A stretch of 64,000 nucleotides of DNA from a virus (Duplodnaviria; Heunggongvirae; Uroviricota; Caudoviricetes). Positions 1-61,922 of this stretch are shown here, piece after piece (the first letter of the stretch is position 1; each line of letters opens with the position of its first letter). A program made the position numbers and the translations under genes. Under the pieces are notes generated by a model that searched no databases, was not told the DNA's origin, and was given only the letters and a program-made list of their open reading frames with translations. Location of the stretch: positions 40,834 to 104,833 of the IMG/VR virus record IMGVR_UViG_3300007609_001205; one strand, given 5' to 3'.

Positions 1-46
1 GATTATATATAAACTATGATAAATTCCAAACCAAGTAAGTGGTCTA

Positions 47-1639
47 GTGAATTCAATATATAAATATATGAAGAAATTAAATAGAGAAGAGATGATAGAA
101 AAGATAATAGAAATACACGGAAAAAAGTATTTATTCAATTTCTTCAAATACACATCATACAAAGAAAAAGTTCAATTAATCTGTAAAACACATGGTAAAT
201 TCAATATTTCATTAAGTAATTTAATAGGAAATAAAAGAGGTTGTCCTGAATGTGGAAGAACAAGAGGTTGGGAATCAAATAAAAAAACAACTGATGAGTT
301 TATTGAAAATTCCCAAAAAATACATAAAAATAAATACAGTTATGAGAATGTAGTATATGAGAAATGGAATATCAAAGTATCTATAACCTGTAAAATACAT
401 GGTGATTTTCTCCAAAGGCCAAATACGCATTTAAATGGAAGTGGTTGTCCACAATGTGGTAAAAGAAAAAGAAGTAACAAAAAACCAAAAAAGATAGACA
501 TTAAAAAAATAAAAGAATTGAACTTTATAAATTTAGCAAAAGCCAAACACAATAATAAATATGATTATACACTTGTAGAATACCAAAGAAGCAATGAGAA
601 GGTCAAGATAGTTTGTAAGAAGCATGGAATATTCCAACAAACTCCACACCATCATAAAAATGGAAGTGGTTGTCCACAATGTGCATATCTAAATCAATTT
701 GGACCAAGACTTAAGACATGTGATTTTATCTCTATTTCAAAAAACAAACATAATAACTATTACACGTACACAAAATCTAATTACACAGGATATAAAAACA
801 AAATAATAATAACATGTCCAATACACGGTGATTTTAAACAAATACCCAAATATCATATGAACGGTGGTGGATGTATAAAATGTAATAATGGAAATGGGAA
901 TAGAAATAGGAATATTCTAAAATACACTACAAAAGAATATATTGAAAATTGCCAAAAAATACACAAAAATTATGATTACAATTTTTGTGAGTATAAGGGG
1001 ATGAAGGAAAATGTTAAAATTATATGCAATAAACATAAAGAATTTGACATCAACGCATACCTACACATAAATGGAAGTGGGTGTCCAAAATGTTCATTGG
1101 ATATGAGGAAAAGAACAAAGGACGAATTTATACAGGAGGCAAACGAAATACATAACAATATATATAAATATCTTATAAGAGATGACTATGTATCGATATC
1201 AGATAGAATACCCATAATATGTAATGAACATGGAACATTTCAACAAAAAGTTGAAACACATCTAAAGGGATGTGGTTGTAACCTTTGCAAAACAAAAAGT
1301 AGAGGGGAGATATCAATAATTAACTTTTTAAATAAATATAATATACCACACACAAGAGAAAAAACGTTCAATAATATAGATAATACAAGACTTAGGTTTG
1401 ACTTTTGGTTACCCCACAAAAAAACATTAATAGAATATGATGGGAAACATCATTTCAAACCCATAAAATATTTTGGTGGTGAAAAAGCATTCGAAAAAAT
1501 TCAAATAAATGATGAAATTAAAAACAGGTACTGCATCGAAAATAATATAAACCTCATAAGAATTAGTTACAAAGAATATAAGAATATTAAAAATATATTA
1601 AAAAATAAATTATTGATAAATGATAAATTCAAAGCCTAA
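47..1639 (+). CDS. DUF559/Vsr-like (PD-(D/E)XK) homing-endonuclease-type protein with six ~50-aa zinc-ribbon-like repeats
   Basis: Six repeats of pattern H..KYDY...EKVKI.C..HG.F.Q.P..H.NGSGCP.C. C-terminus RFDFWLP...IEYDGKHHF matches the DUF559/Vsr endonuclease motif. The track ORF opens at GTG 47; the first ATG is at 68, directly after TATAAATA. Confidence 0.6.
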   Translation: MNSIYKYMKKLNREEMIEKIIEIHGKKYLFNFFKYTSYKEKVQLICKTHGKFNISLSNLIGNKRGCPECGRTRGWESNKKTTDEFIENSQKIHKNKYSYENVVYEKWNIKVSITCKIHGDFLQRPNTHLNGSGCPQCGKRKRSNKKPKKIDIKKIKELNFINLAKAKHNNKYDYTLVEYQRSNEKVKIVCKKHGIFQQTPHHHKNGSGCPQCAYLNQFGPRLKTCDFISISKNKHNNYYTYTKSNYTGYKNKIIITCPIHGDFKQIPKYHMNGGGCIKCNNGNGNRNRNILKYTTKEYIENCQKIHKNYDYNFCEYKGMKENVKIICNKHKEFDINAYLHINGSGCPKCSLDMRKRTKDEFIQEANEIHNNIYKYLIRDDYVSISDRIPIICNEHGTFQQKVETHLKGCGCNLCKTKSRGEISIINFLNKYNIPHTREKTFNNIDNTRLRFDFWLPHKKTLIEYDGKHHFKPIKYFGGEKAFEKIQINDEIKNRYCIENNINLIRISYKEYKNIKNILKNKLLINDKFKA

Positions 1640-2159
1640 TAATAATAAATATCACCAAGGAAATTACATTCCTATAAATAAAGAAAAAGTAATAAAACTA
1701 AACTCAGAAGGGGGAATCTACTACCGTAGTTCCCTCGAAAAAAAAAAAATGATGGTTTGGTTCGATAATAATGATAAAATAATTAGATGGTGTGCAGAGT
1801 GTAACAAAATACCATACCAACTCACACATTATGAAAAATCAGGTGATATAAACTTAAAAAGCCATACCTATTATCCCGATTTCTATTACGAATTAGAAAA
1901 GAATGACAGAACAACCTCAAAAGTTATATGTGAGGTAAAACCACACAAGGAATATGAAGATGTTATTCTATTCGAAAAGAAATTGTTCAATGTACCCCAA
2001 AATGCAACCACAAAAAAATTGAAAAATTTAGAATATCGACTTAAAATGGCACAAAAGAATTCACAGAAATGGAAAACAATGATACGTTACTGTGAGAAAA
2101 AGGGACTTAAATTCATTGTTATAACAGAACAACACCTCAAAAGCAAAAAATTCAATTAA
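1620..2159 (+). CDS. hypothetical protein
   Basis: 179-aa ORF with phage-like K/E-rich composition; its 5' end overlaps the previous gene by 20 nt, so the true start may be internal. Confidence 0.35.
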   Translation: MINSKPNNNKYHQGNYIPINKEKVIKLNSEGGIYYRSSLEKKKMMVWFDNNDKIIRWCAECNKIPYQLTHYEKSGDINLKSHTYYPDFYYELEKNDRTTSKVICEVKPHKEYEDVILFEKKLFNVPQNATTKKLKNLEYRLKMAQKNSQKWKTMIRYCEKKGLKFIVITEQHLKSKKFN

Positions 2160-3106
2160 TTTTTATCACTGAACGTATCCAATGTTTTTAGAAATTCTTT
2201 ATATGTCATATCTATACCATCTCTTAGAGAGGTTTTTGGTTCCCACCCAATTTCTTTCAATTTAGAAACATCCAATAATTTTCTAGGAGTACCATCTGGT
2301 TTGCTCTGATCAAACTCAACGTTACAATAATGACCAATAACATCCTGTATCAGATACACAAGATCTCTTATAGATATATCCTCACCTGTACCAATATTCA
2401 CAATTTCACTTCCGTTATGATGTTCAAATAAATAAACACACGCCTCTGCAAGATCATCAACATAAAGGAATTCCCTTTTTGGGTTTCCGGAACCCCAAAC
2501 AACCACATTATTATCACTTGAATTCATTGATTCGTGTACCTTCCGAATAAGGGCGGGTAATACATGCGATGCTTCAAGATCATAATTATCATTCGGTCCA
2601 TATAGATTCGTAGGCATCACCGATATGAAATTTGTACCATGTTGCTCATTATACGATTGACACATCTTTATACCGGCAATCTTAGCAATTGCATAAGAGT
2701 CATTAGTGGGTTCTAACTCACCGGTCATCAAATACTCCTCTTTTATTGGCTGTTTGGACATCTTAGGATAAATACATGATGAACCAAGGAATAACAATTT
2801 CTCCACTCCATACAAATAAGAGTGGTGTATTACATTATTCTGTATCATCAGATTCTTGTATAGAAAATCTGCTTTTTTAGAATCATTCGCATGGATACCA
2901 CCTACCTTGGCGGCTGCCATAAAAACAAACACCGGACGATGTTTTTTAAAATACATATCCACTCTACCTTGGTTTGTCATGTCCAATTCTGAACTTGTTG
3001 GGGATAGTATATTATTAAATCCCCTCGATTTTAATTGTCGTATTATAGCAGAGCCAACCATACCTCTACCACCACAGACTAATATTTTAGAATACGGTTT
3101 TATCAT
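2156..3106 (-). CDS. fcl: GDP-L-fucose synthase (GDP-4-keto-6-deoxymannose 3,5-epimerase/4-reductase)
   Basis: N-terminus [15 protein letters not shown] (Rossmann GxxGxxG), plus YxxxK and NLYGPNDN motifs typical of Fcl/WcaG; its 3' end overlaps gmd by 4 nt. Confidence 0.85.
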
Positions 3107-4149
3107 TGTGTAACTTTCAATTTAATCAAATCTGCTGATACCATTTCCCTACAAAGTTCTTCAACCGTATATTCGGGTTCCCAATTAAGTACCTCTTTGG
3201 CTTTTGTAGAATCACCAAGGAGTTCATCTACCTCTGTGGGGCGGAAGTATTTCTCATCAATTTTTATAAGAACTTTATTTGTTTTCGAATCAATACCCAC
3301 TTCATCAACTCCTTCACCTTTCCACTCAATATCAACACCAATTTCACGAAATGCCATTTCACAAAAATCCCGAACTGATATCTTCTTACCAGTTGATAAT
3401 ACATAATCTTCTGCTTTTTTTTGCTGCAGCATCAACCACATACCACGAACATAATCCTTTGCATGTCCCCAATCCCTTTCAGCATCCAAATTCCCAATAG
3501 AAAGACTGTCTTGTAGTCCAAGTTTTATTTTCGCAACTGCCTGTGTTATCTTCCGAGTAACAAATGTTTCTCCACGAACAGGACTTTCGTGATTGAACAA
3601 TATACCAGAACAGGCATAAATTCCATATGACTCTCTATAATTCACAGTTATCCAATGTGCATATAACTTTGCTACACCATAAGGACTACGTGGATAAAAG
3701 GGTGTAGTTTCCTTTTGTGGAACTTCTTGTACAAGACCAAACATCTCAGATGTTGATGCTTGGTAAAATTTGGTCTTATTTTCCAATTTCAGAATACGGA
3801 TGGCTTCAAGGATTCTCAAAGTTCCCAGTGCATCAGAGTTTGCCGTGTATTCAGGTGTTTCAAATGAAACCTTAACGTGTGATTGTGCAGCCAAATTATA
3901 AATTTCAGTTGGCTGCACTTCCTGTACGATCCGTATTATATTTGTCGAATCCGTAAGATCCCCATAATGCAAAAAGAAACGATCCTTATATTTGGGGTTT
4001 TCGTATATGTGGTCTATCCTATCTGTATTGAACGAGGAACTTCTTCTTTTTATACCATGGACAATATACCCATTGTCCAAAAGTAATTCCGCCAAATATG
4101 ACCCATCTTGTCCGGTTATACCGGTAATTAATCCAACTTTTTTAGCCAT
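3103..4149 (-). CDS. gmd: GDP-mannose 4,6-dehydratase
   Basis: [43 protein letters not shown] is the canonical GMD N-terminus; SDR catalytic region present. Confidence 0.9.
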
Positions 4150-4200
4150 TGATAAATCTTAAATTTATTTCTTATATCAAATGGAAATAGATTTGTCCAA

Positions 4201-4572
4201 TTAAATTGAATGTAATCCTTGTCCATCATTCGAACCCTGTATAGATATCAACTTAATATTGTTATCGGGGTCACCCTTCTTTTTATACAGAACATTAAAT
4301 TGTTCAGTAAGGGCACGTTTAAATATTTCTGTGAAATATGCAAATGCATTCTCAGACTTCTCTTGATTGAAATTATACCAATTCTGGTACATTTTCAACA
4401 ACCCCATCTGAAAACAATCCATTTTATCATCTTCGGTGAAGAAACGTTTGTTCATTTTTTTTATAGCCTCAGTTCCCAAAATCTCCAACATTTTTACAGA
4501 TCTTCTTGTTAATTTCCCTCTGGCTTTTGATACTACTATTTCATAATACAGTTCTTTATTATTTATGTGCAT
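4201..4572 (-). CDS. late-transcription sigma factor, T4 gp55-like
   Basis: The NNKELYYEIV, KMLEIL and NAFAYFTEIF blocks align with T4 gp55 (VNNKELLQAI ... NPHAYITQACFNAF). Size 123 aa. Confidence 0.65.
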   Translation of the reverse strand: MHINNKELYYEIVVSKARGKLTRRSVKMLEILGTEAIKKMNKRFFTEDDKMDCFQMGLLKMYQNWYNFNQEKSENAFAYFTEIFKRALTEQFNVLYKKKGDPDNNIKLISIQGSNDGQGLHSI

Positions 4573-4668
4573 AAATTAAGCATTGTTTTTTTACCACTAG
4601 TGGTTATACTAATGCTTTTGAATTATATGATAAAATTATAAATAAGTTTTAAAAATAGCCCAGAAACA

Positions 4669-4699
4669 AAAAAAAAAATCCGACCGTAGGTCGGATTTT
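4669..4699 (-). terminator. intrinsic terminator (hairpin TCCGACC-GTA-GGTCGGA)
   Basis: 7-bp GC-rich stem flanked by A10 upstream and T4 downstream on the + strand. On the minus strand it reads hairpin + T10, separating the 4719..5996 gene from the gp55-like gene. Confidence 0.6.
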
Positions 4700-4718
4700 C
4701 CAAGTATAACTATTCAGG

Positions 4719-5996
4719 TTATTTTTTAACTCTTTCTTTGTACTGAAGTTCTTTAATTCCATCAACTTCTGTCTTCAAGTTATTTTCTCTTGTTTTTAAG
4801 TTTTCAAATGCCTCTGTAAGAACTTCGGACTCACCCATAATTTCCATAGAAGACTTTATCTTAGAAATGTTGAATTGAACATCTTCCAATTTAAGAGTAA
4901 CTTCTCTTTCTTTGTCTTCTAATTTTTTCTTAACAACTACCTCTTTATCAAGTTTAGTTTCAAAGAAATAAGTGAGATCACACTGAAGTTCATTTCTAAC
5001 TTCATTAACCAACTCCAATGCTGATTCATATTTGAAGAATGAATGTCCATATCTTTCATCACATCTATACAAGAATGTATTATCTTTGTAATTGAAAACA
5101 TATGCTTCCAATGTAGGGTTAATCAGATTACTAACTCTTTTAACAACATCCAATTCAACAAATGAATCTAAATTATTAGATACTTCAAGAATGATCGGAT
5201 AAAAACTTCTATTTACGATAGGAATTACCGGTGAATTGAAAACTGACTCAAGAGTACTCTCATCAGTCATCTCATCATCATTGATATAAACTCCTTTCTT
5301 TGAAACTCCAAGCCCAATAGTCAAATATTCAGAAATTCTGAAATCTATTCTTGATTCAGAGATTTCACTGAACTGCATTGAGTTTTGAAGAGTTCTTAAT
5401 GTTTCTAATCTCTCATCATCAGAAATATGTGATTCAAGCAATGTTTTCTCAATAACGCCATCTGAAAGCAAAAACCATGAATCCTTAATAAATGCCAAGT
5501 GACCATCTTCAACTTGCTCTACAATAGTATAAACAGGCTCAGATTTACCACCACTCAAAAGATTTGATCTATCCTCCGGATTCTTTGTTAAATTATGAAC
5601 AAAAAGCTTTATTTCTGGAACCCAGTCATAGATTGACAATTCGTTTAGGATCTTAGTGATTCGATCTTGATCAGTTTCCATGTTAATTGTTTCCAATAAA
5701 ACATTTATAGGCTGTCGATACAATTCACCCTGGTTCTTTGAATTTAAAACATTGAATAATGACTTCAATTCATATACCAATTTAAATTCCTCAACATCAT
5801 TGTTAATGCCTTCAAGAAAGGATTTAACTTGGTCATCAAATGAATACTTATTAAGTTTTTCATTCAGTGATTTTATAATCCCTAATTCTGCGTGGTCATT
5901 GAAATTCATGTGTCCCTCTATAATATAAGCCACATCTGATTGGTCATATGACAAAGATTTTTTGAAGTTGAATAGTTCAAGCTTTAGATTCTTCAT
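4719..5996 (-). CDS. hypothetical protein (acidic, coiled-coil C-terminus)
   Basis: 425-aa ORF; no motif recognised. Confidence 0.5.
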   Translation of the reverse strand: MKNLKLELFNFKKSLSYDQSDVAYIIEGHMNFNDHAELGIIKSLNEKLNKYSFDDQVKSFLEGINNDVEEFKLVYELKSLFNVLNSKNQGELYRQPINVLLETINMETDQDRITKILNELSIYDWVPEIKLFVHNLTKNPEDRSNLLSGGKSEPVYTIVEQVEDGHLAFIKDSWFLLSDGVIEKTLLESHISDDERLETLRTLQNSMQFSEISESRIDFRISEYLTIGLGVSKKGVYINDDEMTDESTLESVFNSPVIPIVNRSFYPIILEVSNNLDSFVELDVVKRVSNLINPTLEAYVFNYKDNTFLYRCDERYGHSFFKYESALELVNEVRNELQCDLTYFFETKLDKEVVVKKKLEDKEREVTLKLEDVQFNISKIKSSMEIMGESEVLTEAFENLKTRENNLKTEVDGIKELQYKERVKK

Positions 5997-6053
5997 ATTC
6001 TGAAATATTTTTTTTATATAAACTATATATTAGTATTAAAAACCCACTTTTTT

Positions 6054-6800
6054 CTATTTACCGATATCACCGGAATTTGGGTTTTTCCCATTCGGCTTAC
6101 CATCTCTCAAATTTTTCAAATTATTATACCACTTGGTCCTCATTGGACTGGCTTTCAATGTATCATCCTCCTCGTTAAACGATGGGTAATATGTTTGAAC
6201 TTCAATTTGTGCATTTAACCGTATCTCATTATCACCGGTCAAACCACCCTTTTCTCTCGAAATATCAATACTATTATTATCAGGCATTTGCATATAAGCA
6301 TCAATATGCATATAGTTATATTCAAAGAACATAAATTTATATAACCAAAGTGTATCCATTATTGACTGAGAACACTTAAATGTATCAATTTCAGTTTTCA
6401 ACAATATGGATAGGTCATAAGTGGCACTTATTGGCACAGCCCTTACCTTTTTCAACTCTCTCCTCAATTCAAGTCCCTCTTCTTTAATATCCTTTAACCA
6501 CATATTGGGATTTCTGAATTCATCAGAACGAATTGTCCAATCTTTCAATGTCAGGTGACCACGTGGTATCTGGTCAGTATTAAGTTCGACATACCTATTC
6601 TCGGAAACAATATCATCTTGGAAAGAATCCAAAAGAAATCTCTCATCACCGGACAGAGAATAATAAATCGGAACATTCACCTCAACATCTTTCTTAGTGA
6701 AACGGTTTGTCCATTTTATCCTTCCTTCGAGTGTATCCAACACACAAATGGTCAGATCACGAAAAAATACATCTTGATAATTAAACTTTTTGCCAATCAT
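6054..6800 (-). CDS. hypothetical protein
   Basis: The track ORF 6054..6887 overlaps the start of the clamp-loader gene by ~100 nt. An internal Met (MIGKKF, ~6800) gives a non-overlapping 249-aa product. Confidence 0.45.
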   Translation of the reverse strand: MIGKKFNYQDVFFRDLTICVLDTLEGRIKWTNRFTKKDVEVNVPIYYSLSGDERFLLDSFQDDIVSENRYVELNTDQIPRGHLTLKDWTIRSDEFRNPNMWLKDIKEEGLELRRELKKVRAVPISATYDLSILLKTEIDTFKCSQSIMDTLWLYKFMFFEYNYMHIDAYMQMPDNNSIDISREKGGLTGDNEIRLNAQIEVQTYYPSFNEEDDTLKASPMRTKWYNNLKNLRDGKPNGKNPNSGDIGK

Positions 6801-7782
6801 ACCACTATATATTAAGAAACAAAAACCTCGTAATATGAAAGACTTACTTTTTTGGGAAAGATACAGACCAAGGAAAATGGAAGACATGGTTCTCCCTGAA
6901 AGAATAACAAATCATTTTAAGAATGGACTCAATAAAAATGTTATATTATATGGAGATTTTGGAACAGGGAAAACATCACTTGCAAGAATTCTCATTGGGA
7001 AATATAGAACAGGTACCAATTACATCGAAGTAAACTCATCACTATACACATCAATTGATTTATTGAGAAACGAGATAGAAAAATTCTGCAAATCAACAAA
7101 TATAATAGACACAGAAGATGATGTAAAATATGTTTTCCTAGATGAATATGAACGTGTATCTGCTCAATTCGAAGATGCATTCAAAGCATTTAGTGAAAAA
7201 TACAAACACGTAAGGTTTATTCTAACCACCAACCACTATAACAAAGTATCTAAAGGAATAAAATCAAGGTTTACAGGAATAAACTTCAACTTTCACGAAG
7301 ATGAAAAGAAAGACATTCAACAGAGGTTTTATAAAAAGTTAAAAAATATATGTGCCAACGAATCAATAACCATTGATAATAAGACATTGGCCGATGTTGT
7401 TAAGAAGAATTTTCCCGATATGAGGTCAATGGTACAAAGAGTCCAAGACATCAAAGATACCGGAACAGAAGAGAAGTCAATTGAAATAAATACAGAACTA
7501 CAAGAAAACCTATACAAAACCCTATTCGAAAAAGATATGACATACAATGAAATATATCATTTCGTAATGGATAATTTTGGGGATGATAACATTGATGTAA
7601 TGTTTCAAATATTATCAAGACCATTTGTTGATCATATGATTGAAAAGAAACAATCAGTAAACCAACTCTTCAAATGTAATTATATCATAACCGATACCTA
7701 CCCCAAATTGGAAACAAATGCAGACCCAATTATCGTTGCAATGACAACCATAGGAAGGTTAAGAGATATTCTCACATCTTAA
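6790..7782 (+). CDS. clamp loader ATPase subunit, T4 gp44-like (AAA+)
   Basis: The Walker A motif GDFGTGKTSLARIL, the Walker B motif VFLDEYER, and VKKNFPDMRSMVQRVQDI aligning with T4 gp44 ALVKKNFPDFRKTIGELD. Confidence 0.8.
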   Translation: MPIIPLYIKKQKPRNMKDLLFWERYRPRKMEDMVLPERITNHFKNGLNKNVILYGDFGTGKTSLARILIGKYRTGTNYIEVNSSLYTSIDLLRNEIEKFCKSTNIIDTEDDVKYVFLDEYERVSAQFEDAFKAFSEKYKHVRFILTTNHYNKVSKGIKSRFTGINFNFHEDEKKDIQQRFYKKLKNICANESITIDNKTLADVVKKNFPDMRSMVQRVQDIKDTGTEEKSIEINTELQENLYKTLFEKDMTYNEIYHFVMDNFGDDNIDVMFQILSRPFVDHMIEKKQSVNQLFKCNYIITDTYPKLETNADPIIVAMTTIGRLRDILTS

Positions 7783-7947
7783 TCATTCAAAAATGCTGCT
7801 TCCATAATTTAACCGTACACCCATTTCATAATATCATCGATATATATATCAAATCTATTGCATAATATTCATCACATACGAATGATATATCAACTAAGAT
7901 GAGGTATTCCATTTAAATAATGATGAAAATTCATAAAAAGGTACAAG

Positions 7948-8352
7948 GTGTTCCATATCAATAATATATATTATATGCCAGAGTTCGATTTTAAAGATAT
8001 GTATATAGGATACCAAGGACACCCACGGTTCCAAGTGAATACCATCATAACCGATGACATAATCCGTGTGATTATTCAAAAATACGAGATGATCATCTTC
8101 ACAAATAAAGGAGAACTCTATGGTGATCCAAATTTTGGGGCAGATCTTTTGAAATTATTATACGAAACAAGAATATCAGCAACAGCAACACGAAATGTGA
8201 TTGCTCAACAAATCTCGGAATACATACCAGAATTGAACGATATCGATTATGGGTTGGAAGTTGTATTTGAACAAGACCCGGAAAAGTTCCAAGATATAAT
8301 GATTGTGAATTTCACCATACGTGAATACGAAGTTAAAGCAATAATTGCCTAA
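7948..8352 (+). CDS. baseplate wedge protein, gp25/GPW family
   Basis: TNKGELYGDPNFGADLLKLLYE...ATRNVIAQQISEYIPELNDIDYGLEV aligns with T4 gp25 TRKGSRPFDPEFGCDLSDQLFE...VERNIESAVRNYEPRI. The track start is GTG 7948; there is an ATG at 7975. Confidence 0.7.
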   Translation: MFHINNIYYMPEFDFKDMYIGYQGHPRFQVNTIITDDIIRVIIQKYEMIIFTNKGELYGDPNFGADLLKLLYETRISATATRNVIAQQISEYIPELNDIDYGLEVVFEQDPEKFQDIMIVNFTIREYEVKAIIA

Positions 8353-11300
8353 CTCAACCTCTTAGTACCAAGTGTCGCATTCCTATATTGCTTCGATGTT
8401 AAATTAGCAAATGCCTCTAATTCCTGTATATCAAGTATCCCCTTTATCTCATAATTCTTTCTATCTCTCCAATTAAGACCATAACCATTATTAGAACTCA
8501 CCTCAACAACTATAAATGGGTCAATATTTGAATCAACCGTGAAGTTGAATGGGTCAGTGTTAGAAGATAGCCTTCTCTCACTTATTCGTTGAATTGGATG
8601 TAAATCTATCTCTTTCCATTCTGTTATATCAATCCAATTCGTAAATTGACCACCATTATCATTCACGGGTGGAATAACTGAGGCTGTTACAGATTGTGTC
8701 ATTCCATAACCAGAAAATATATAATTATACCTATTATAACTCACAACATCAGAAACATTATAAGTAGTACCCGTTTTCCATTCCGGAACATCCTCATACT
8801 TCCGAGGGTTATTCAAACGATTATCACCAATAACAGACTCATACACCTTATCAAAATAAATAACCTTTTCACCGACAGAATATGTCTTCAATGGATACCA
8901 TTCACGGTATATCTCATATGTTTTGATATCAACAACATATTCGTCCGGCAATGATTGAGTTACACCAAGTGGTTGATCTGCATAAAAATCAAGAACACAA
9001 TTATACACAGTTGATCCATTATTAACAGGCATCAAATAAGATTCATTCAATCTAAAACTGATAGGTGTCATCGATTCCCTCACATTGAATATGGTAACAT
9101 CTCTCATCTGGTGAGAAATATAAGTGTTCTGAACAAAATCTGTTCGACCGGTGATATCCAATATCTTATGTGATAATGGTATTATATTCCCCTGCAACCA
9201 ATATTTCAAACCTTGTAACTTTTTCTGAACCTCCTCAAGAGTATATGTCAGAACACTATTACCATCTCTATCAGTTATACGGTAAGTAAGGTTGAATAAA
9301 TTCGTGTCTTCATATGTATCATTTGGAAATGTACCTTTCAAAAAGTCATTATCTTCCCACCCCACAACAGTTTGGTCAAATATATCAGGTATCTCTACTT
9401 TGAACAATTTCATATAGTTTTTTGAAAGGCGATCAACATTCTTATAATATTCATACAGTTCAAGGTCATTATAACCAAAATAGTTTATGGCATTTATTAT
9501 TGACTTATATGCCCCAACATATGGGTATATAACATGTCGCATCATCAACATCTCTTTACGTTTCTTATTAAGGAATGTCCAATCAATTCCTTCTTCTTTA
9601 ATATCATACTCCTTAAAAATATAAACATCATCTGATGATATCAATTTACCCATATTGTTCAATTCCGTCTTGTATCTTATGTCTTCATTTTCGGTTTGAC
9701 CATATACGAAAAATCTCCCTATCTCTTTATCCCACACCCTTATACGCAACGACAAATAAGTAATTGAATTATCTGATGGATAGCCATTGACGATTGTTGA
9801 TTCATCTTCGAAAAAATCTATTTCTTTGAAAAATTCAACCTCTATCTCTCTTGAATAAACTGCCTTTACTTTCACCAAATAACCATTATTAACTGATATG
9901 TATTGGTTTGAAGCATTTGAAACATCATTTAAGAAAATGGCTATATGTTGCCCAACTTCAAGACCCCTATTGACAAACATGGTATTTGATTGTGGATTTA
10001 ACTTTATAAAACCCGAACGTTTTCCCGATACGGGATCAACCACGGTTGAAAATGATATTTCATTTGTAATATCTTGTGATACATCAATGGTAAAGTCAAT
10101 ATCTTCCTTCATATACAATTGTAATACTGAACGAAGTGCCCCCTCTTCTCTTGAACGATACCCGACAAAGGTTTCAATTGGTTGTGGTGTTGATGAAATA
10201 TCATCATTATCATCTACAAACCCCAATTCGTGGTCAATTCTCGGAAAAACGGTCTGTTGATAGATGGAATTTCCCACTTTGTCAATATCCCTATTAGGCT
10301 TATTGTTCAAATGAACCGTTGGCAAAGGCTTTTGACCAATATAGGCGAGTGGTCCATCAGTAGTCAGTTGTTCCCCCGAAAAATCATAAAGGAAAAATTC
10401 CGGAACATTATCCGAATACCATTTCCAATAAACACTTGCTGTTATACCGCCATTGAAATTGTATCGTGGTCTTCTCAAATAATCCCTCGTATTCAACCAG
10501 AGACCATCTGGTTGTGTATAATTAGGATGAAGAGCACCATATTGACTTTGTGTAACAGTCAATGGATTCGACACAACCACATTGGAAACCACAAAAGAAA
10601 CTTGTGGAACAACTTCAATTATCTGTGATAATGTAGGTTGCAAAAACCAAACAGAATTCCTATCCGGGTTGAAAACATTTCGTGTAGTATTATCACCAAC
10701 AGGTAATGTGAATAATTCCCTCACAACACCTGTAACAGAATTCATAACAGATATATTTGCATTACCCGGATCCTGATTGGAAATATAAACATCCCCATCA
10801 TAATAATTCAATACTTGGTATCCATATGCAGGCGGTACTGTATTATTATAAAATTGATTGCCATTGCTTGCATTTCTTTTATAAAACTTAGGTGCATCCG
10901 ATGATGCATATATAGAATCATCCACCCCTGAAAATTCAAGATAATTATTCGTTCCTGATGCAATACCAGTTGATATAACAACATTATTATCAATATAATA
11001 TAAATCCGAAGAGTCATAGAAATAAACTGCCTCTCTTACCGGGTCATAGATAACCTCATCATCTGTTACCGATGGAACAGAATACGTATTCACAACGGTT
11101 CGTGTCGAACCATCTATCCTTCTAACATCAGTTGGTGGGGAAACAACATACATATCCCCTTCAAATTCATTGAAAACAATATCATATCCCTGACCCGATA
11201 TGGTCTGCACCAATGAACCGGAATTGTATATTAGAACTGATGTATCTGTCGTAACATAAACATCCCCATTATCACGATTGAAATCAAGTGAGAATGCAGT

Positions 11301-14138
11301 TGATGGTAATGTTACCGAACCAATAAGATTCTGTGTGTAAATATCAATCCAATAAAGATCCCTTTCTTCTAAGGCATATACATAAGAATCATATGTATTA
11401 TAAATCATCTTCAATGGTGAGTAAGTACCTGATAAAGTAACTTGTGATTCTAAATTACTCGTTATTGAATCATATACCAATACATCATTACCAAGTACAA
11501 AAATTGAACTCGATGGTTGCACATAAAGAATATCCACAATAGATTGTGTTGCTGTTGCATATGTGTTCAATGAATATGTTGCCGTGTTTTGGAATGTGAT
11601 ATTATATGCACTCGAAAATTGCTGATTGTTGAATTGACCACCTGACTGGGTCACGGAAATACACCCTGATTGCTGAAACCCATTAGAGAACCCAACAATT
11701 GCAAATGGAGAATTACCATAACACGCCTGAGTCAATCCCCAAAATGGACCCTCATAACTTAAATTCATTATATATGGATCAAGGAATATTATACTATAAT
11801 CAACATTCTGCAATGTATAAACAGTATTATTTACCCCCATGACCATACCCGTAGAAAATCCAGAATCCTCAAAATGAAGACATGAAAATGTTCCGGACTG
11901 TGTTCCGGATTGTGTCCCAAGTATTACCGAATTTGATGTGAGAAGTGAACCATGGTTCCCTTTGAATTTCTCAGTTATCACATAATTACTATCACCTGGC
12001 AAAACACTTGCACCCGGCTTCACACTTATATCACACCTTTGGGATGGGTCTTTAACATTAAATTTCAATGTTGAGCCAAGATTATCAACATATACACCAA
12101 AATCATCCAAAATAAATTGGTGTTGGTCTATCCAATCCTCCAATGTTTCTACCATCGAAGATACCCCACCCGTTGGAAGGCTGTGTGTTACTGGATATGA
12201 TCGATCATTCACAACAATATCCACATATGGTCCATAACTGAAAGTAACACCCTCAATAGATGGTTCGTGAAAAGTTACCTCTGTGTGTTCTATATAAAAA
12301 TCTGCAGTTGAACCAACACTTACATTGAAATCCATTGGAACATTCGGATATTGAGTTTCTAATTTTATAGAATTCTTATAGGGTGAAATCATACCTATTG
12401 TCTGTAATGTTGGTGCAATACCCAAACTCACCAACTCAGATAGGTTGTTATTATACCACTCAATAAGTGTGGCGTGTATTGTTCGTTCCATATCAATCTG
12501 ACCAGATGAATACACAAATTTTATATCTGCTTGATAAATTTCACCATTTATATTTATGACAAACCCAAATTCGTCAAGGTCAGTGAAGACAATATTATAA
12601 AGGAAATTCTCAGATATATCATAATTATACTCACTTGTAAGTTGTTCTTCAACTTCAATAAGTCTTTCTATTTTCTGATTCGTTGTACCAATATTCACCT
12701 GTGGGGTGGTATCTGTTAAAAAATTAACAATAGTGTATTGCGATGGATGCACAAGGTCGGCCTTTAACTCAGAACCTTCATAATAAAGGTCTATATCAAG
12801 CTCAGAAAAGACATCTGAGTACTTATCAGCAGCAGATGCAAGTGTTACCCCCTCAGAGAAGGTGAAACTCTGTGTGAATGCGAATCTATCAACAGTAAGA
12901 TAAACTTTACCATTTACCCCAATTGTCTCATTCACGGGTGTCTGTTCAACGGGTATATAAGTTGCCGTACTTGACCAATAATCCGTATCATCCGGATTTA
13001 CAGTAGTTACCGGTGGAGTAACAGTAAGGTCTTCACTTATGGAGTTAGCAACCCACGTATATGATTGAACACATTGATATATTTTATTCTTCCATATTAC
13101 TTGCTGACCAACTTGGTATGTTGTTTGGTTAGCATTCCCAACAAATGAAGAAATTGGGGAAACTCTATAAAATTGTTGGTTAGATATCGACTCCGGTATC
13201 TTAAATTCAACACCCGGCTTCAATATTTGAGGAACACCCGAAACAAAATCAATAACACCAACAAAACCAAGTGAGTTGGTTGTTGTTGCATCATAAAATT
13301 GCATTGCTCCCTCATAAACCAAAGGAACATCTGTTCTTGTAAGAACTTCTATGAAAAGTCCCGTGTTGGTTGGTAACTGTGTATTTGATACCGAATACTC
13401 ATAATGACTCATATCAAGTAGGTTATCATTCTTTATAGTAACAATATCAACATCATCAAAATCATTAGTTTGTTTATAATCATCATTACTATCAGTATTA
13501 ACAATATTTATCCTCCTACCAACATCGATCTTAGTGTAGAATTCATCCTCATTCCAAGTGGATAAAGTATTCTGTAATGATGGAGTTATGTAATTATAAA
13601 TACCAAGGGCATCAACAGATGATATCTTCTCGTCATTGTATGACGAATTATTCTGATAAGGATACGTATTATCGAAGAACGAATTTGTTTCATCAGATAA
13701 TATCATAATTGCACCCGGCTTTGTTCTTATAACGAAATACATTCTATTGGGGTCTGTGAATCCAAATATAGGATCATCGAACCGTATCAATGTACCAATA
13801 GGAAATTTCTTATGAAAATCAACACCATAAACCCACTTGGAATAATATGAATCCTCAAAATTAACAGGTTCAATAGATGTCACAACCTCAGACAAAACAC
13901 CGGATTCATAGAAATGAAAGCCATATTCATTAAATAACTGCCATTTATCAAGTGTAAGATTCTCTCCACACTCATAATCAAAAGCATCTACATTTTCAAA
14001 CATATAAATGCCCTGTGTTTTAAATGTGTCTGTTGAATTCTCATGAAAGAGGATATCCCCATCATATCTTTCAATATCTGTATTATACGTAATGTTTAAA
14101 GACTTTCCCTCCTTATCAAAGAACCTAAGATTATTCAT
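8349..14138 (-). CDS. very large virion structural protein (1929 aa; baseplate or tail-fibre candidate)
   Basis: Uninterrupted 5.8-kb ORF that is S/T/N/G-rich, with an SGTQSGTQSGT repeat. It is convergent with the gp25-like gene and carries the late-promoter-like motif upstream. Confidence 0.6.
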   Translation of the reverse strand: MNNLRFFDKEGKSLNITYNTDIERYDGDILFHENSTDTFKTQGIYMFENVDAFDYECGENLTLDKWQLFNEYGFHFYESGVLSEVVTSIEPVNFEDSYYSKWVYGVDFHKKFPIGTLIRFDDPIFGFTDPNRMYFVIRTKPGAIMILSDETNSFFDNTYPYQNNSSYNDEKISSVDALGIYNYITPSLQNTLSTWNEDEFYTKIDVGRRINIVNTDSNDDYKQTNDFDDVDIVTIKNDNLLDMSHYEYSVSNTQLPTNTGLFIEVLTRTDVPLVYEGAMQFYDATTTNSLGFVGVIDFVSGVPQILKPGVEFKIPESISNQQFYRVSPISSFVGNANQTTYQVGQQVIWKNKIYQCVQSYTWVANSISEDLTVTPPVTTVNPDDTDYWSSTATYIPVEQTPVNETIGVNGKVYLTVDRFAFTQSFTFSEGVTLASAADKYSDVFSELDIDLYYEGSELKADLVHPSQYTIVNFLTDTTPQVNIGTTNQKIERLIEVEEQLTSEYNYDISENFLYNIVFTDLDEFGFVININGEIYQADIKFVYSSGQIDMERTIHATLIEWYNNNLSELVSLGIAPTLQTIGMISPYKNSIKLETQYPNVPMDFNVSVGSTADFYIEHTEVTFHEPSIEGVTFSYGPYVDIVVNDRSYPVTHSLPTGGVSSMVETLEDWIDQHQFILDDFGVYVDNLGSTLKFNVKDPSQRCDISVKPGASVLPGDSNYVITEKFKGNHGSLLTSNSVILGTQSGTQSGTFSCLHFEDSGFSTGMVMGVNNTVYTLQNVDYSIIFLDPYIMNLSYEGPFWGLTQACYGNSPFAIVGFSNGFQQSGCISVTQSGGQFNNQQFSSAYNITFQNTATYSLNTYATATQSIVDILYVQPSSSIFVLGNDVLVYDSITSNLESQVTLSGTYSPLKMIYNTYDSYVYALEERDLYWIDIYTQNLIGSVTLPSTAFSLDFNRDNGDVYVTTDTSVLIYNSGSLVQTISGQGYDIVFNEFEGDMYVVSPPTDVRRIDGSTRTVVNTYSVPSVTDDEVIYDPVREAVYFYDSSDLYYIDNNVVISTGIASGTNNYLEFSGVDDSIYASSDAPKFYKRNASNGNQFYNNTVPPAYGYQVLNYYDGDVYISNQDPGNANISVMNSVTGVVRELFTLPVGDNTTRNVFNPDRNSVWFLQPTLSQIIEVVPQVSFVVSNVVVSNPLTVTQSQYGALHPNYTQPDGLWLNTRDYLRRPRYNFNGGITASVYWKWYSDNVPEFFLYDFSGEQLTTDGPLAYIGQKPLPTVHLNNKPNRDIDKVGNSIYQQTVFPRIDHELGFVDDNDDISSTPQPIETFVGYRSREEGALRSVLQLYMKEDIDFTIDVSQDITNEISFSTVVDPVSGKRSGFIKLNPQSNTMFVNRGLEVGQHIAIFLNDVSNASNQYISVNNGYLVKVKAVYSREIEVEFFKEIDFFEDESTIVNGYPSDNSITYLSLRIRVWDKEIGRFFVYGQTENEDIRYKTELNNMGKLISSDDVYIFKEYDIKEEGIDWTFLNKKRKEMLMMRHVIYPYVGAYKSIINAINYFGYNDLELYEYYKNVDRLSKNYMKLFKVEIPDIFDQTVVGWEDNDFLKGTFPNDTYEDTNLFNLTYRITDRDGNSVLTYTLEEVQKKLQGLKYWLQGNIIPLSHKILDITGRTDFVQNTYISHQMRDVTIFNVRESMTPISFRLNESYLMPVNNGSTVYNCVLDFYADQPLGVTQSLPDEYVVDIKTYEIYREWYPLKTYSVGEKVIYFDKVYESVIGDNRLNNPRKYEDVPEWKTGTTYNVSDVVSYNRYNYIFSGYGMTQSVTASVIPPVNDNGGQFTNWIDITEWKEIDLHPIQRISERRLSSNTDPFNFTVDSNIDPFIVVEVSSNNGYGLNWRDRKNYEIKGILDIQELEAFANLTSKQYRNATLGTKRLS

Positions 14139-14204
14139 TTAAATGATCAATTTGGTGTATATATAAAATTAGGTTATTCTCGGACAAATTCATATATTTA
14201 CAAA

Positions 14205-18615: not shown

Positions 18616-18658
18616 CCAACCTTTGAAAACCTTATTAAATAATAAGGATATATAATAT

Positions 18659-25720: not shown

Positions 25721-25800
25721 ATTATTTAAATTATTTTTTATCTATTAGGTTATATATAAAATAAAAAAAATCAACTTTTTCTATTTCGGATATAATGATA

Positions 25801-31094: not shown

Positions 31095-32867
31095 TTACTT
31101 TTCAGTCGGTCTTAATGGAACTGCAGTGGAACCAGCATCTCCCATATCACTTTCTGATACATCTACTGAACCTGTATCATTTTTTGGCTCAGAATTTCCA
31201 CCGAATTTCTCCAACATCTTAAGTGTTTGATACATTCCCATACCCATCATTGGATCAGTTTCATCACCATCACTAGAATCATCAGAACCATTTTGGTAAT
31301 TATAGAACTGTGGTGCTGCAAGTGCTTGTGCAGGCAATTCCTTCATAAATTCCATAAGTCTCAACTGGAATGACATATCTTTCCCAAATACATTCACAAG
31401 TTCTTCTTGACCTTTCGCAACACCTTTATTATATAGGTATTCAGCCTCACCATCCAATCTACGTGCTTCTTTATTCTCAGCAGCAGCTTGTTTCTTAATC
31501 TGTGCAGCTACAAGCGCACCTTGTTGTTCAGCTTCGGCTTTTGCTTTAGATGATGCAACTTTTGCATGGAATGCCTTCTGTTCTTCCTTATAGGTTTGCT
31601 TCAACTTATAAGCCAACTGTTTTCTCTTATCAGGAACAAGCAATTCAGGTGGAATCGAAACAGATGTTAATCGGAATTCTTTAACCTTAACTTTATTCTT
31701 CATAGCCTCATCTACAATAAATTTTTCAATAGAACTCTCAATATCACTACGTTTTGTTACGAATTCAGTAGCTTCTCTAAGTTCTCCTTGATTACGAACC
31801 TGTGACCTTACAAGTGGTGTTATTACCTTGTTTTCAAGATCAACCAAACTCCCAATGGATGATAGGATATATGGAGCATCTTCTGCATCGATCTGTACTA
31901 ATAATCGACCATTTACATGAACTTCCCAACCATCTTTTGTCTTAGTACCCATTGCATCATCTGCAACACCCGATTCTTTACCATATTCAATTGGCTCACG
32001 TGTTTGGGTGATATCACCATTCTCACTCACTTCAAGGTCAATGGTTGCAGTTTTATAATTACCCGCATACTTCCATGTCTGAACACGTGTGTTGAATTTA
32101 GTGATAGTATATGCATTTGTGTTGATGTAATATTTTGATGGTGTAAGTACTTTCTTTCGAATACCTCTAAACCCTTCACCTACAACCGGGTTTGCTAACT
32201 CACCACCATCTGCTGCTCGTTGAATGTCATCTGGAACTTTACCGACTTTTGATAAAACCACACCAACATAACCAGGGGGGATTGTAGTGGCTCTTTCTAA
32301 TTTCGTTCTAAATAAATAAGTATTGATCTTATACTCACCAGGTTCAAGTACATTTAATTGTGGTCCTTTACGCCCACCATTCTCCAAAAAGTACTTCGCA
32401 TCCAACATATTTGTTTCAATACTATCACGATATTGTTCTTGATCAGGTGATACCCAATCAGGTGCAATAAATTCCTCACCTACCAATGGCTGACCATCAA
32501 GTGCAGTAAGAGTTCCCACCATACCATCTGGAACAACAAATGTAGAATCATAGGTAACGGTGTTGTTTACATTAACCCACCAATGCCATGCCATACCCTC
32601 CGAAAGAATTTTCGCCTGACGACCATTTTCGCCATTTTTTGAAATGACACCATCCGTGTTTGATACACCACCCCATTTCTTATAAATAAGACCAATATTC
32701 TCCTTTGGGACACTGATCAAGGAAGTGGCCACGAAACCACCCAAAAAGAAAATGGCTGATACTACCCACAAATGCCACCTTTTGACGGGAAACCTTGGTT
32801 GTTGAAAAATGGGTATAAAAGATGCTCCAAGAGCAATAACCGATAAAATTAATAAAATTGCATACAT
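31095..32867 (-). CDS. membrane-anchored SPFH/band-7 (flotillin/YqiK-like) protein
   Basis: Two N-terminal TM helices and a central SPFH-like region. A coiled coil rich in A/E/Q/K (AEAEQQGALVAAQIKKQAAAENKEARRLDGEAEY) is typical of flotillins. The C-terminal tail is acidic. Confidence 0.55.
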   Translation of the reverse strand: MYAILLILSVIALGASFIPIFQQPRFPVKRWHLWVVSAIFFLGGFVATSLISVPKENIGLIYKKWGGVSNTDGVISKNGENGRQAKILSEGMAWHWWVNVNNTVTYDSTFVVPDGMVGTLTALDGQPLVGEEFIAPDWVSPDQEQYRDSIETNMLDAKYFLENGGRKGPQLNVLEPGEYKINTYLFRTKLERATTIPPGYVGVVLSKVGKVPDDIQRAADGGELANPVVGEGFRGIRKKVLTPSKYYINTNAYTITKFNTRVQTWKYAGNYKTATIDLEVSENGDITQTREPIEYGKESGVADDAMGTKTKDGWEVHVNGRLLVQIDAEDAPYILSSIGSLVDLENKVITPLVRSQVRNQGELREATEFVTKRSDIESSIEKFIVDEAMKNKVKVKEFRLTSVSIPPELLVPDKRKQLAYKLKQTYKEEQKAFHAKVASSKAKAEAEQQGALVAAQIKKQAAAENKEARRLDGEAEYLYNKGVAKGQEELVNVFGKDMSFQLRLMEFMKELPAQALAAPQFYNYQNGSDDSSDGDETDPMMGMGMYQTLKMLEKFGGNSEPKNDTGSVDVSESDMGDAGSTAVPLRPTEK

Positions 32868-36786: not shown

Positions 36787-37350
36787 TCACTCGTTTATAA
36801 CAACGGGTGTCTTATCTGATTTGGTAACATCAATTACCTCAACCCTACATGGTTGTTCCGGTGCCCACTCTTCAATGAACTTAACCAAGTGAGCATGACG
36901 GTCATCATACATTACAAATGTATCAGGATTGTATTTCTCAATGAGATCACTATATAGAATAGATTTAAAATCATAAGTATCCATACCAGGATTCAAATAA
37001 GTATGTGTCCCAAAATCAATGTTGTGATGTCTTAAAATATCCATAACCTGTTTCCTAAGAGATAACCTACCGGGTCTTTCACCATTACGTGATTTATCTA
37101 ACCGACCAGTCGCAAGAATAGGTAAAGTTGCCTCTTCTGAACACGCCTCAAGGTATTTTTTATAAACAAATGGATTAACAGGTATGTCAAATATATTTAT
37201 ATCCAAAGATTCCGGTTTTGACCACCACCCCGGATATGGCCAATCAAGACCAGTAGATTCCGACCAAAACTTTTTCCCCCAATCCTCCTTAGGACTATAC
37301 ACAAGTGTGTCGTCAAAATCAAATGATACTATTTTATCTACATACTCCAT
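36787..37350 (-). CDS. HAD-superfamily phosphatase/nucleotidase
   Basis: FDFDDTL (DxDxT) forms motif I, with downstream conserved T/S and K/D motifs. Confidence 0.6.
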   Translation of the reverse strand: MEYVDKIVSFDFDDTLVYSPKEDWGKKFWSESTGLDWPYPGWWSKPESLDINIFDIPVNPFVYKKYLEACSEEATLPILATGRLDKSRNGERPGRLSLRKQVMDILRHHNIDFGTHTYLNPGMDTYDFKSILYSDLIEKYNPDTFVMYDDRHAHLVKFIEEWAPEQPCRVEVIDVTKSDKTPVVINE

Positions 37351-37446
37351 TCTATCTAATCTTTTTCTATGTAATTATATATAATGTATATATATTAAAC
37401 ATATATCGCAAAGATACTAAAAATATTAACATAATTATGTTTTCAA

Positions 37447-37880
37447 CTATACTTAAAAAAATTGGACAGATGGATGCCAAAACAATTGTAATATTCATCC
37501 TATTAGCATTATTGGCTTTCTTCTATGTAAAAGGAATGTTTAACCCAAGTGATGACAATTCAGACAAAATTTCGGAACTCGAAAAAATAAACAAGCAATT
37601 GGAAAAGGATCGAGATAACTTAGAAGATGCATATGAAACAACTTATGAAATGTATCTGAATGATTCAAGTGAATTATCAGAATTGAAAAAAGAATTCGAC
37701 CTTTTGGAAGCACTTCTTGCAGACAAAGAAAGAGAACTTAAAAAATCAAGAAAGGAATTATCCGAAGCAAGAAAAAGAGCCGAAGAAACTCGCAAGAAAA
37801 TTAAAGAACTTGAAGAAACCCCAATAAAAAGGACAGGAAACGACCTAATAGAATCTATTCAAGAAAAAACAACAAAATAA
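37447..37880 (+). CDS. N-terminally membrane-anchored coiled-coil protein (lysis-associated candidate)
   Basis: MFSTILKKIGQMDAKTIVIFILLALLAFFYV forms a TM helix, followed by a long coiled coil. The track ORF starts further upstream at 37305. Confidence 0.45.
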
Positions 37881-38538: not shown

Positions 38539-38587
38539 TATGAAAAAAAGGGATTTTCAATAATAATATATAATACATAAAATTATT

Positions 38588-44383: not shown

Positions 44384-44443
44384 TAGTAACTTTTAATTAT
44401 GAGTTATATATAAATTATACAAAGACATCTTAATATATAAACT

Positions 44444-47496: not shown

Positions 47497-47937
47497 ATGA
47501 AAGAAAAAGAATTAGTTATTGTAGTACGTGAATTTGATAAACTGAATCTCATAGAAAATGATATGTATTCAGAAAATCCCGATTTGTATGAAAATTACAA
47601 ACTTTCTGATTTACCACTTGTAAAATATACAGAAAAACTCAAAAAAGAAAATAAGACATTGTTAGAAAATTTCAATGCCATATCTAAATCACTTGATAAT
47701 GATGAGGAATTTGTATATTATTTATCCGTAAAAAATGATCTTTTATACATTGCTGGATATGATACATTTGCAGAAGGTCGTGAAAAACTTATGGATCTTG
47801 TCAAAGAATTGAAATTGGATATTGAACTTATCGATTATAAGATTCCACTAACAAGAACTCAGAAAGAAGACCTCCGAAAGTTAATAGATGATGTATATGA
47901 GGGGAATGTAGATGCATTCTATTACGAATACTTCTAA
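47497..47937 (+). CDS. hypothetical protein
   Basis: 146 aa; TATCTTTG lies 8 nt before the ATG. Confidence 0.45.
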   Translation: MKEKELVIVVREFDKLNLIENDMYSENPDLYENYKLSDLPLVKYTEKLKKENKTLLENFNAISKSLDNDEEFVYYLSVKNDLLYIAGYDTFAEGREKLMDLVKELKLDIELIDYKIPLTRTQKEDLRKLIDDVYEGNVDAFYYEYF

Positions 47938-49370: not shown

Positions 49371-49494
49371 ATATTATATTTGTATGTATATATAATAACA
49401 GATAGCTCCCCTATTCCCCCTCAACTCGTTATTTCTATATTATACCCATCCTATACGGGATTTGGTAATATATAATTAAAAGAAATTACATAAT

Positions 49495-54154: not shown

Positions 54155-54186
54155 AAACAAAGTTTAGTATCTGATATATAAATTAT

Positions 54187-56121: not shown

Positions 56122-56328
56122 ATGGGATTTTTGAATAATTTTTTTGGCTATCGGTCATGGTTAAAAGAACCGAAATATTGTGAACATTGTGATGATACAG
56201 GAGAGATTGAAGTTATTGTAATGGGAACTGATGATACGAATTACGTAGAATGCACAGTTTGTAAAAATAGACCATCAAGAGTACGAACCAAAAGAAACAG
56301 AACACTAACCAAAATATTAGACACATGA
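56122..56328 (+). CDS. small zinc-ribbon protein
   Basis: CEHCDDTG...CTVCKN forms a CxxC-x20-CxxC arrangement. Confidence 0.4.
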   Translation: MGFLNNFFGYRSWLKEPKYCEHCDDTGEIEVIVMGTDDTNYVECTVCKNRPSRVRTKRNRTLTKILDT

Positions 56329-61888: not shown

Positions 61889-61922
61889 TTTCAACTAATA
61901 TCATTTCTAATATATAATACAT

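Follow-up and report, generated by a model that had tools for sequence, protein, structure and literature searches.

Virus-encoded gmd and fcl pairs are already known from T4-like cyanophages (PMC9602691) and from phycodnaviruses (PMC3602175). The two genes encode GDP-mannose 4,6-dehydratase (Gmd) and GDP-L-fucose synthase (Fcl, also named WcaG or GMER). In this work we describe such a pair at positions 2156-4149 of a 64,000-nt stretch of DNA from a virus of the class Caudoviricetes (IMG/VR record IMGVR_UViG_3300007609_001205, positions 40,834 to 104,833), which is referred to below, at its full length, as the window. In the phage collection, 124 records covered at least 80% of this Gmd and 199 covered at least 80% of this Fcl.

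The Synechococcus phages S-SCSM1 (ORF121/122), S-SKS1, S-SRM01, DSL-LC03 and ACG-2014f likewise carry adjacent and co-oriented genes, gmd then fcl, in the genome of a T4-like myovirus. Their Gmd and Fcl proteins are 66-68% and 50-59% identical to those of the window, respectively, and the pairs have been read as an auxiliary cell-surface or glycan module (PMC9602691). The Prochlorococcus phages P-SSM2 and P-SSM5 match Fcl only. The cyanophage pairs lie in large clusters together with fucosyltransferases, several glycosyltransferases, a GDP-mannose epimerase, a mannose-6-phosphate isomerase and an annotated wcaG RNA motif, whereas the window presents a bare two-gene cassette directly behind a gp55-like gene (gp55 below), a putative late sigma factor gene, with no transferase within reach and no Rfam match, in another phage lineage and with a likely host in the Bacteroidota.

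Chloroviruses and prasinoviruses of the PBCV-1 type also encode the two-step GDP-fucose pathway, and the loss of the pair in one of their lineages (PMC3602175) parallels the states observed in the window's family, in which the same slot holds both genes, gmd only, fcl only or nothing. However, these are giant viruses of eukaryotes that possess their own glycosyltransferases and a capsid protein shown to carry fucose. In bacteria, the gmd-fcl (wcaG) operons for colanic acid and O-antigen, including those behind the Escherichia coli structures 1db3 and 1bws, share with the window the enzymes, the gene order, the catalytic residues and a high-scoring, near full-length alignment, but their surroundings are polysaccharide loci that also contain manB/manC, transferases and exporters. 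The window pair is located outside any such locus, fixed in a core region of the phage genome.

The terminases nearest to that of the window (39-54% identity) belong to huge phages of the Mahaphage clade (LR756502, LR745206, LR756501/3 and LR756504), some of which have an Fcl 55-57% identical. Their genomes reach 634-735 kb, against roughly 135-152 kb for the window's phage, and LR756502 carries fcl near GT2-like and fucosyltransferase-like genes, with neither gmd nor gp55 within 15 kb. The window's locus differs from these cases in its lineage and likely host, in being reduced to two genes, in its constant position behind gp55 and in the range of other contents that relatives show at that position.

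Identity and predicted product of the pair

Both open reading frames (ORFs) were found where the preliminary description had placed them, on the minus strand: gmd at 3103..4149 (348 aa) and fcl at 2156..3106 (316 aa). The four-nucleotide overlap that it described was read directly from the sequence. The gmd frame ends in GTT ACA CAA TGA and the other frame begins with ATG ATA AAA CCG, the ATGA at 3103..3106 of the minus strand (read from 3106 to 3103) being the start of fcl and the stop of gmd at once.

Profile searches with Pfam GDP_Man_Dehyd on Gmd and with NF047922 on Fcl identified the pair, and the observation of gmd followed by fcl holds as it was first described. Gmd scored 599.6 bits against TIGR01472, whose cutoff is 415, with residues 4-341 on profile positions 1-339 of 342; it matched GDP_Man_Dehyd (PF16363) at E 5e-160, and the GDP-mannose 4,6-dehydratases 7kf3 and 1db3 of the PDB at E 5e-155 and 7e-152, in a near end-to-end alignment. 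Fcl reached 468.2 bits against NF047922 (cutoff 500), with residues 6-309 on profile positions 3-305 of 308, and the next-best family, at 75 bits, was about 390 bits lower. The PDB matches listed for Fcl are GDP-L-fucose synthase/GMER entries (7ll6, E 1e-104; 1bws, E 2e-100), and homologues 82% and 78% identical to it bear the JGI name GDP-L-fucose synthase. These profile and PDB scores are far above chance for both proteins.

The catalytic residues, whose loss would have spoken against function, are intact in both proteins. Gmd, an extended short-chain dehydrogenase/reductase (SDR), keeps the GxxGxxG motif for NADP(H) as GITGQDGS at residues 10-17, and in the alignment to E. coli 1db3 it keeps T133, E135, Y157 and K161 (ASTSE at 131-135 and YGVAK at 157-161). 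In the alignment of Fcl to E. coli GMER (1bws), the GxxGxxG motif is GGRGMVGS at residues 12-19 and the SDR triad S109, Y138 and K142 corresponds to S107, Y136 and K140 of E. coli. In addition, C111 (in GSSCIYP) and H181 (in SHVLP) align to E. coli C109 and H179, which we take, from published work, to be the acid/base pair of 3,5-epimerisation. The catalytic residues of Gmd and Fcl are invariant in all relatives of the clade, and the C111/H181 pair is also kept in a variant that has fcl only (L312; L numbers denote IMG/VR contigs).

In the predicted pathway, Gmd would oxidise and dehydrate the GDP-D-mannose of the host to GDP-4-keto-6-deoxy-D-mannose. Fcl would then epimerise it at C3 and C5 (Cys111/His181) and reduce it at C4 with NADPH (Ser109/Tyr138/Lys142), yielding GDP-beta-L-fucose. 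Since the active-site residues are invariant, they point to GDP-L-fucose as the product rather than to that of a simple 4-reductase, such as GDP-D-rhamnose, and it is very probable that Gmd and Fcl together turn host GDP-mannose into GDP-L-fucose. That the end product is another 6-deoxyhexose (GDP-D-rhamnose, GDP-6-deoxy-D-talose or GDP-L-colitose) appears highly improbable. Such a product would fit the score of Fcl slightly under the NCBIfam equivalog cutoff (468 vs 500), and some viral Gmd proteins are bifunctional and make GDP-D-rhamnose too (Tonetti et al. 2003, as cited in PMC3602175). However, the PDB matches of Fcl and its Cys/His pair for 3,5-epimerisation speak for GDP-L-fucose, and neither a ColD-type aminotransferase nor an Rmd-type reductase was found nearby in the ORF scans of the window.

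Position, inheritance and transcription

The order p1929-gp25-gp44-p277-p425-gp55-gmd-fcl-gp4-p233-portal recurs in IMG/VR relatives of the window. A capsid-protein search gathered a backbone family of at least 205 IMG/VR contigs, the best 80 of which are 63-74% identical in that protein. The contents of the slot behind gp55 were tallied on the contigs in which gp55 was visible together with either the small downstream ORF s99 or the gp4-like gene. Ten contigs, counting the window, hold gmd and fcl (L006, L008-L014 and L291 being the others), with 64-84% protein identity. One has gmd alone (L015); in L296/L297 and L308, where gp55 is out of view, gmd is also followed directly by s99. Two have fcl alone, with its catalytic motifs intact (L312 at 1974-2903 and L313 at 1826-2743); there fcl follows gp55 directly and gmd is absent from the approximately 21.7 kb examined. 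In two more (L017 and L316, with L021 as a partial case lacking a view of gp55), gmd shares the slot with two opposite-strand genes, one for a GT-B glycosyltransferase (PF13528, E 6e-32) and one for a metallophosphoesterase. Four contigs have a glutamine-synthetase-like gene in the slot (L332, L333, L339 and L348), two have one ORF of unknown function (L357 and L358), and ten have essentially nothing (L285, L302, L303, L306, L317, L318, L326, L327, L338 and L354).

The family contains the glutamine-synthetase-like gene repeatedly, at one of two places: the gp55 slot or the interval that separates p233 from the portal gene. Copies are found at 1476-2561 of L332, 724-1857 of L339, 1944-3095 of L348, 13007-14044 of L015 and 14649-15737 of L017, the last two with both Gln-synt_N and Gln-synt_C domains.

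In the two-gene relatives in IMG/VR, Gmd is 78-84% and Fcl 64-78% identical to the window proteins, and Fcl homologues in the large protein collection reach 82%. The junction is tight in every one of these relatives, with TAAATG and no spacer in L004 and L006 and a 17-nt overlap in L008-L014. The G+C content at third codon positions is 0.281 for gmd and 0.290 for fcl, against a mean of 0.280 +/- 0.040 for 60 window genes, and the codon log-likelihood of both genes, calculated from the codon usage of the remaining window genes, deviates from theirs by no more than about one standard deviation. A neighbour-joining tree built from 101 distinct sequences, a simple distance tree without support values, shows the Fcl proteins of the phage clade as monophyletic and sister to mostly Bacteroidota bacterial Fcl. 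No cellular relative of Fcl exceeded 65% identity, and the nearest ones belong overwhelmingly to the Bacteroidota (Cytophagales, Chitinophagales, Flavobacteriales and Saprospiraceae). Gmd is too conserved for tracing the clade; among the JGI metagenome matches listed for it, identity was at most 77% and none came from the phage clade.

Composition, synteny in relatives and Fcl monophyly agree that the pair is not recent host-derived cargo. The slot is an insertion hot spot with mobile endonuclease genes nearby, as would suit recent acquisition from a host and carriage as a neutral or decaying passenger. Against this, the composition is fully ameliorated, no bacterial Fcl came closer than 65% identity, the phages that share the monophyletic Fcl clade have diverged to 64-82% identity, and none of the catalytic residues has been lost, nor has the tight junction. 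Recent capture from a host was rejected on composition, phylogeny and synteny, and the probability left to a passenger role is negligible. As judged from these comparisons, the cassette is an accessory module in a hypervariable hot spot, stably and vertically inherited within one sub-lineage.

The transcription of the pair was approached through the signals around gp55 (4201..4572, minus strand), which is directly upstream of gmd. The 51-nt spacer between them (4150..4200) has no terminator-like site and no ATATATAW motif, and the terminator scan found no terminators between gp55, gmd and fcl. A terminator-like hairpin of 13 pairs followed by a T run (4701..4673, minus strand) ends the gene upstream of gp55. 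After it, an AT-rich stretch about 100 nt long precedes gp55 (within 4573..4701) and is the putative start of a gp55-gmd-fcl transcription unit. Scans for sigma-70-like promoters and for the T4 late promoter TATAAATA gave no promoter assignable to this unit: the former were at chance level in the window (46 found, 46.0 expected), and the latter was not enriched (15 found vs 12.5 expected). No Rfam family, the wcaG motif included, reached the gathering score in the window, and nothing relevant was found at E<=5 in 1500-6200.

The window contains 66 copies of the motif ATATATAW, against 25.8 +/- 7.5 expected, and 0 of 100 shuffles had that many. It is located 10-35 nt upstream of many ORFs, the largest structural ones included, for example at 14159-14166, 18648-18655, 25750-25759, 38566-38573, 44404-44413, 49468-49475, 54174-54181 and 61910-61917, and may be a phage promoter, possibly a late one. 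It is absent from 1168-7839, hence from the region before gp55, gmd and fcl. The upstream hairpin and the lack of internal terminators point to one gp55-gmd-fcl transcript independent of ATATATAW. By read-through, gmd and fcl would be transcribed together with gp55, either earlier than the candidate late promoters or without them, and their translation would be coupled. If ATATATAW is a late promoter, expression of the pathway would accompany that of the late-sigma gene and not that of the late genes.

Destination of the GDP-fucose

The preliminary description had reported no obvious glycosyltransferase in the window, and a scan of its approximately 58 ORFs against Pfam at E<=0.01 likewise gave none. 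None was found in the 11 kb past the right end of the window either (ENA ERZ27257077, k141_63257, precomputed Pfam), nor in the 20 kb scanned on the opposite flank of the closest relative with both genes, and a tblastn panel of S-SCSM1 fucosyltransferases and glycosyltransferases gave no match. The scans covered about 75 kb of the phage, or about half of its genome. Aligned by a single gene in common (window 62414, contig position 21161), k141_63257 would begin near window position 41,254 and extend approximately 70 kb beyond the right end. A match to FUT8_N_cat (E 0.005) in the ORF at 37305-37880 was rejected as a coiled-coil artefact, with TPR_MLP1_2, OmpH and others hitting the same residues and a score far below the cutoff.

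In the gmd-only relative IMGVR_UViG_3300032294_002710, followed to 79.9 kb, a GT2 gene was found in a module at 67.1-69.9 kb (L363 8329-11077), together with genes for a pyridoxal-phosphate-dependent enzyme and a second M20-like peptidase. At E<1e-10, the protein collection contains 839 homologues of this GT2. Homologues occur in family members with an empty or glutamine-synthetase-like slot, whereas the closest relative with both gmd and fcl lacks the gene at the syntenic position; none of the top 120 homologues is on the Fcl-bearing contig of 151,869 bp or on k141_63257 (92,273 bp). As a dedicated consumer of GDP-fucose it was rejected, its presence being independent of gmd and fcl.

The explanation that we favour, and hold to be rather probable as a whole, is that of an auxiliary metabolic operon: a working de novo GDP-L-fucose pathway, co-transcribed with gp55, that would feed fucosyltransferases of the host. 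Less certainly, the GDP-fucose would be used by fucosyltransferases not encoded nearby, most likely those of the host, so that the phage would sustain or raise the fucosylation of cell-surface glycans during infection. A consumer in the host is favoured because the cassette is bare, with no transferase found alongside. The relatives with gmd only (L015, L296 and L308) or fcl only (L312/L313) are easiest to understand if the host supplies the other step, and hence has a GDP-fucose pathway and transferases. A comparable reliance on host GDP-fucose is described for the chlorovirus lineage that lost both genes and still has a fucosylated capsid (PMC3602175). The preliminary description had inferred glycosylation of virion proteins or remodelling of the host surface as the purpose of the pair; the evidence leans slightly to the host fucosylation pathway, and we tentatively propose its augmentation as the purpose.

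It is possible, if somewhat unlikely, that the GDP-fucose instead feeds a phage-encoded transferase, outside the window or unrecognised, which fucosylates virion proteins or assembles a glycan specified by the phage. Late and structural genes surround the cassette (gp55 and the gp4-like gene, then portal, prohead protease and capsid protein in relatives), and the sister phages that place a GT-B beside gmd, where fcl would be, indicate that the slot can hold a phage-directed transferase. Other phages with a Gmd 77-78% identical keep it in glycan clusters with a GT11 fucosyltransferase, a UDP-galactopyranose mutase (Glf), FkbM methyltransferases and a nucleotidyltransferase. The fcl of Mahaphage LR756502 is 10-12 kb from GT2-like and alpha-1,2-fucosyltransferase-like genes, S-SCSM1 combines gmd and fcl with three fucosyltransferases (PMC9602691), and the major capsid protein of chloroviruses contains fucose (PMC3602175). 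On the other hand, neither the approximately 75 kb of the phage nor the 20 kb of its closest relative revealed a glycosyltransferase, the GT2 of the family comes and goes independently of the pair, the gmd-only and fcl-only relatives point to reliance on host enzymes, and the operon lacks the ATATATAW motif that precedes structural genes.

A more specific version of phage-directed use would make the slot between gp55 and the head-completion gene a diversifying "glyco-cassette" locus. Its occupant would set a phage-specific 6-deoxyhexose modification of virion proteins or of the host receptor, made by a not-yet-recognisable transferase among the ORFs without a family. We consider this doubtful. 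If it were true, the fucose donor would serve phage-directed modification and not the host pathway, with a role in immune evasion, stability or exclusion of competing relatives.

The enzymes could also act as a sink, draining host GDP-mannose and starving the synthesis of mannose-containing capsule, O-antigen or glycoproteins. The lack of an accompanying transferase in the window scans would agree with a sink, and the gmd-only relatives would still use up GDP-mannose. But a sink needs neither the intact Fcl, with its epimerase and reductase residues kept in tight coupling across the clade, nor the fcl-only variant. Moreover, Gmd in known systems is feedback-inhibited by GDP-fucose, which would limit the draining. 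This alternative is very unlikely.

Several points weigh against the operon serving host fucosyltransferases. A phage fucosyltransferase may be encoded in the other half of the genome or by one of the many ORFs that match no family, and a GT2 gene does recur in the family, though independently of the gmd/fcl state. In a sister sub-clade (L017 at 11040-12733, L316 at 1553-3231, and L021), the GT-B and a calcineurin-like metallophosphoesterase replace fcl beside gmd; beyond that sub-clade, IMG/VR gave no close homologue of the L017 GT-B, and neither the window nor the sequences of the PDB had a match to it. Fcl is 32 bits short of the NCBIfam equivalog cutoff of NF047922, and the timing argument takes ATATATAW, a candidate, as a late promoter. 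Finally, the host is probably a member of the Bacteroidota, a placement drawn only from the relatives of the phage and the nearest bacterial Fcl. Fucosylated capsules and glycoproteins are common in Bacteroidota.

Flanking genes, phage lineage and significance

The preliminary description had placed the pair between a homing-endonuclease-type gene and the late sigma factor gene. On the sigma side the match is modest: the 123-aa gp55-like protein matches PHROG 234 "late sigma transcription factor" at E 1.5e-7 over profile positions 11-109 of 181, has a weak match to a sigma70-ECF region (E 1.4e-4) and no Pfam match, and its homologues at the same position in relatives are 64-89% identical. The other side needs correction, since fcl adjoins a gp4-like nuclease gene and the endonuclease lies one gene further. 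The gp4-like gene (1620..2159, plus strand, 179 aa) is convergent with fcl, and their stop codons overlap in TTAA at 2156..2159. Its product matches PHROG 218 "head closure" (E 1e-25, profile positions 2-145 of 148) and PF08722 TnsA_N (E 6e-13). The gene is in the same place in every relative (51-78% identity), always adjoining p233 and the portal gene. By these matches it corresponds to the gene for the T4 gp4 head-completion nuclease and is a conserved core gene, not a homing endonuclease.

The homing-endonuclease-type gene itself (47..1639, plus strand) encodes a Zn-finger/DUF723 protein matching PHROG 559 (E 9e-109) and PHROG 9084 "homing endonuclease" (E 2e-24). The 530-aa version of this protein, with a GTG start, had no entry on record. 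In the window the gene separates the gp4-like gene from p233, two genes that follow each other directly in most relatives, and comparable insertions are sporadic among them (L013, L286, L328, L343 and L352). A paralogous Zn-finger (DUF723/DUF4379) endonuclease-type gene is at 47934-49370 and an HNH endonuclease gene at 63255-63728; genes like these three are inserted at varying places in the relatives.

The backbone of the window includes a gp44 clamp loader (PHROG 168, E 2e-47), a gp25-like baseplate protein, a T4-type large terminase and a UvsX/RecA homologue. Its structural ORFs are very large (1929, 1416, 934 and 750 aa), and the window has no tRNA genes. A megablast of window positions 1-9000 against 50,697 phage records returned no relatives at the DNA level, an exact 37-mer taken from the start of the window had no match in JGI metagenomes, and the gmd, fcl and endonuclease genes led only to a Logan contig of 5.3 kb. 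The large terminase subunit is closest, at 53-54% identity, to those of uncultured phage genomes of 642,428 and 634,780 bp, followed by genomes of 636,363 and 735,411 bp and then by Tenacibaculum phage PTm1 (34%). Genomes with these four sizes have been assigned to the Mahaphage clade, with predicted Bacteroidetes hosts (PMC7162821). The genome size of the window's phage is roughly 135-152 kb, as estimated from the longest Fcl-bearing contig (151,869 bp) and a related IMG/VR contig (134,852 bp). The phage family is large and T4-like, with a terminase nearest to those of the Mahaphage huge phages.

Other genes of the window include an apparent NAD+ salvage pair: 56325-57239 has weak cytidylyltransferase-like and NUDIX matches (NadR/NMNAT-like), and its partner at 57242-58894 is a nicotinamide/nicotinate phosphoribosyltransferase (NAPRTase, E 5e-14; NAMPT_N). 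An SPFH/Band-7 protein is encoded at 31095-32867, an ankyrin-repeat protein at 51584-52147 and a DUF3293 protein at 60874-61290, while the 1929-aa structural protein (8349-14138) has a CBM5/12 carbohydrate-binding module. In the closest relative (L250), a 480-aa ORF at 8479-9921 (minus strand) resembles, by eye, the C-terminal part of a family-B DNA polymerase (YADTDS). It adjoins an endonuclease-like gene at 10001-10762 (plus strand) with dispersed weak homologues in IMG/VR, which suggests that the polymerase gene is split in that phage. The gmd-only relative IMGVR_UViG_3300032294_002710 encodes, at 54.2-55.7 kb (L292 14929-15429 and 15426-16379), a NADAR-domain protein and a Dam-like N6-adenine DNA methyltransferase.

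The pair adds a well-supported virus-encoded GDP-fucose pathway outside the cyanophages and the algal viruses, in an uncultured phage family, with no new kind of biology. The natural series of slot contents, with both steps, one step or a transferase swap, offers a test bed for distinguishing the topping-up of a host pathway from phage-directed glycosylation.

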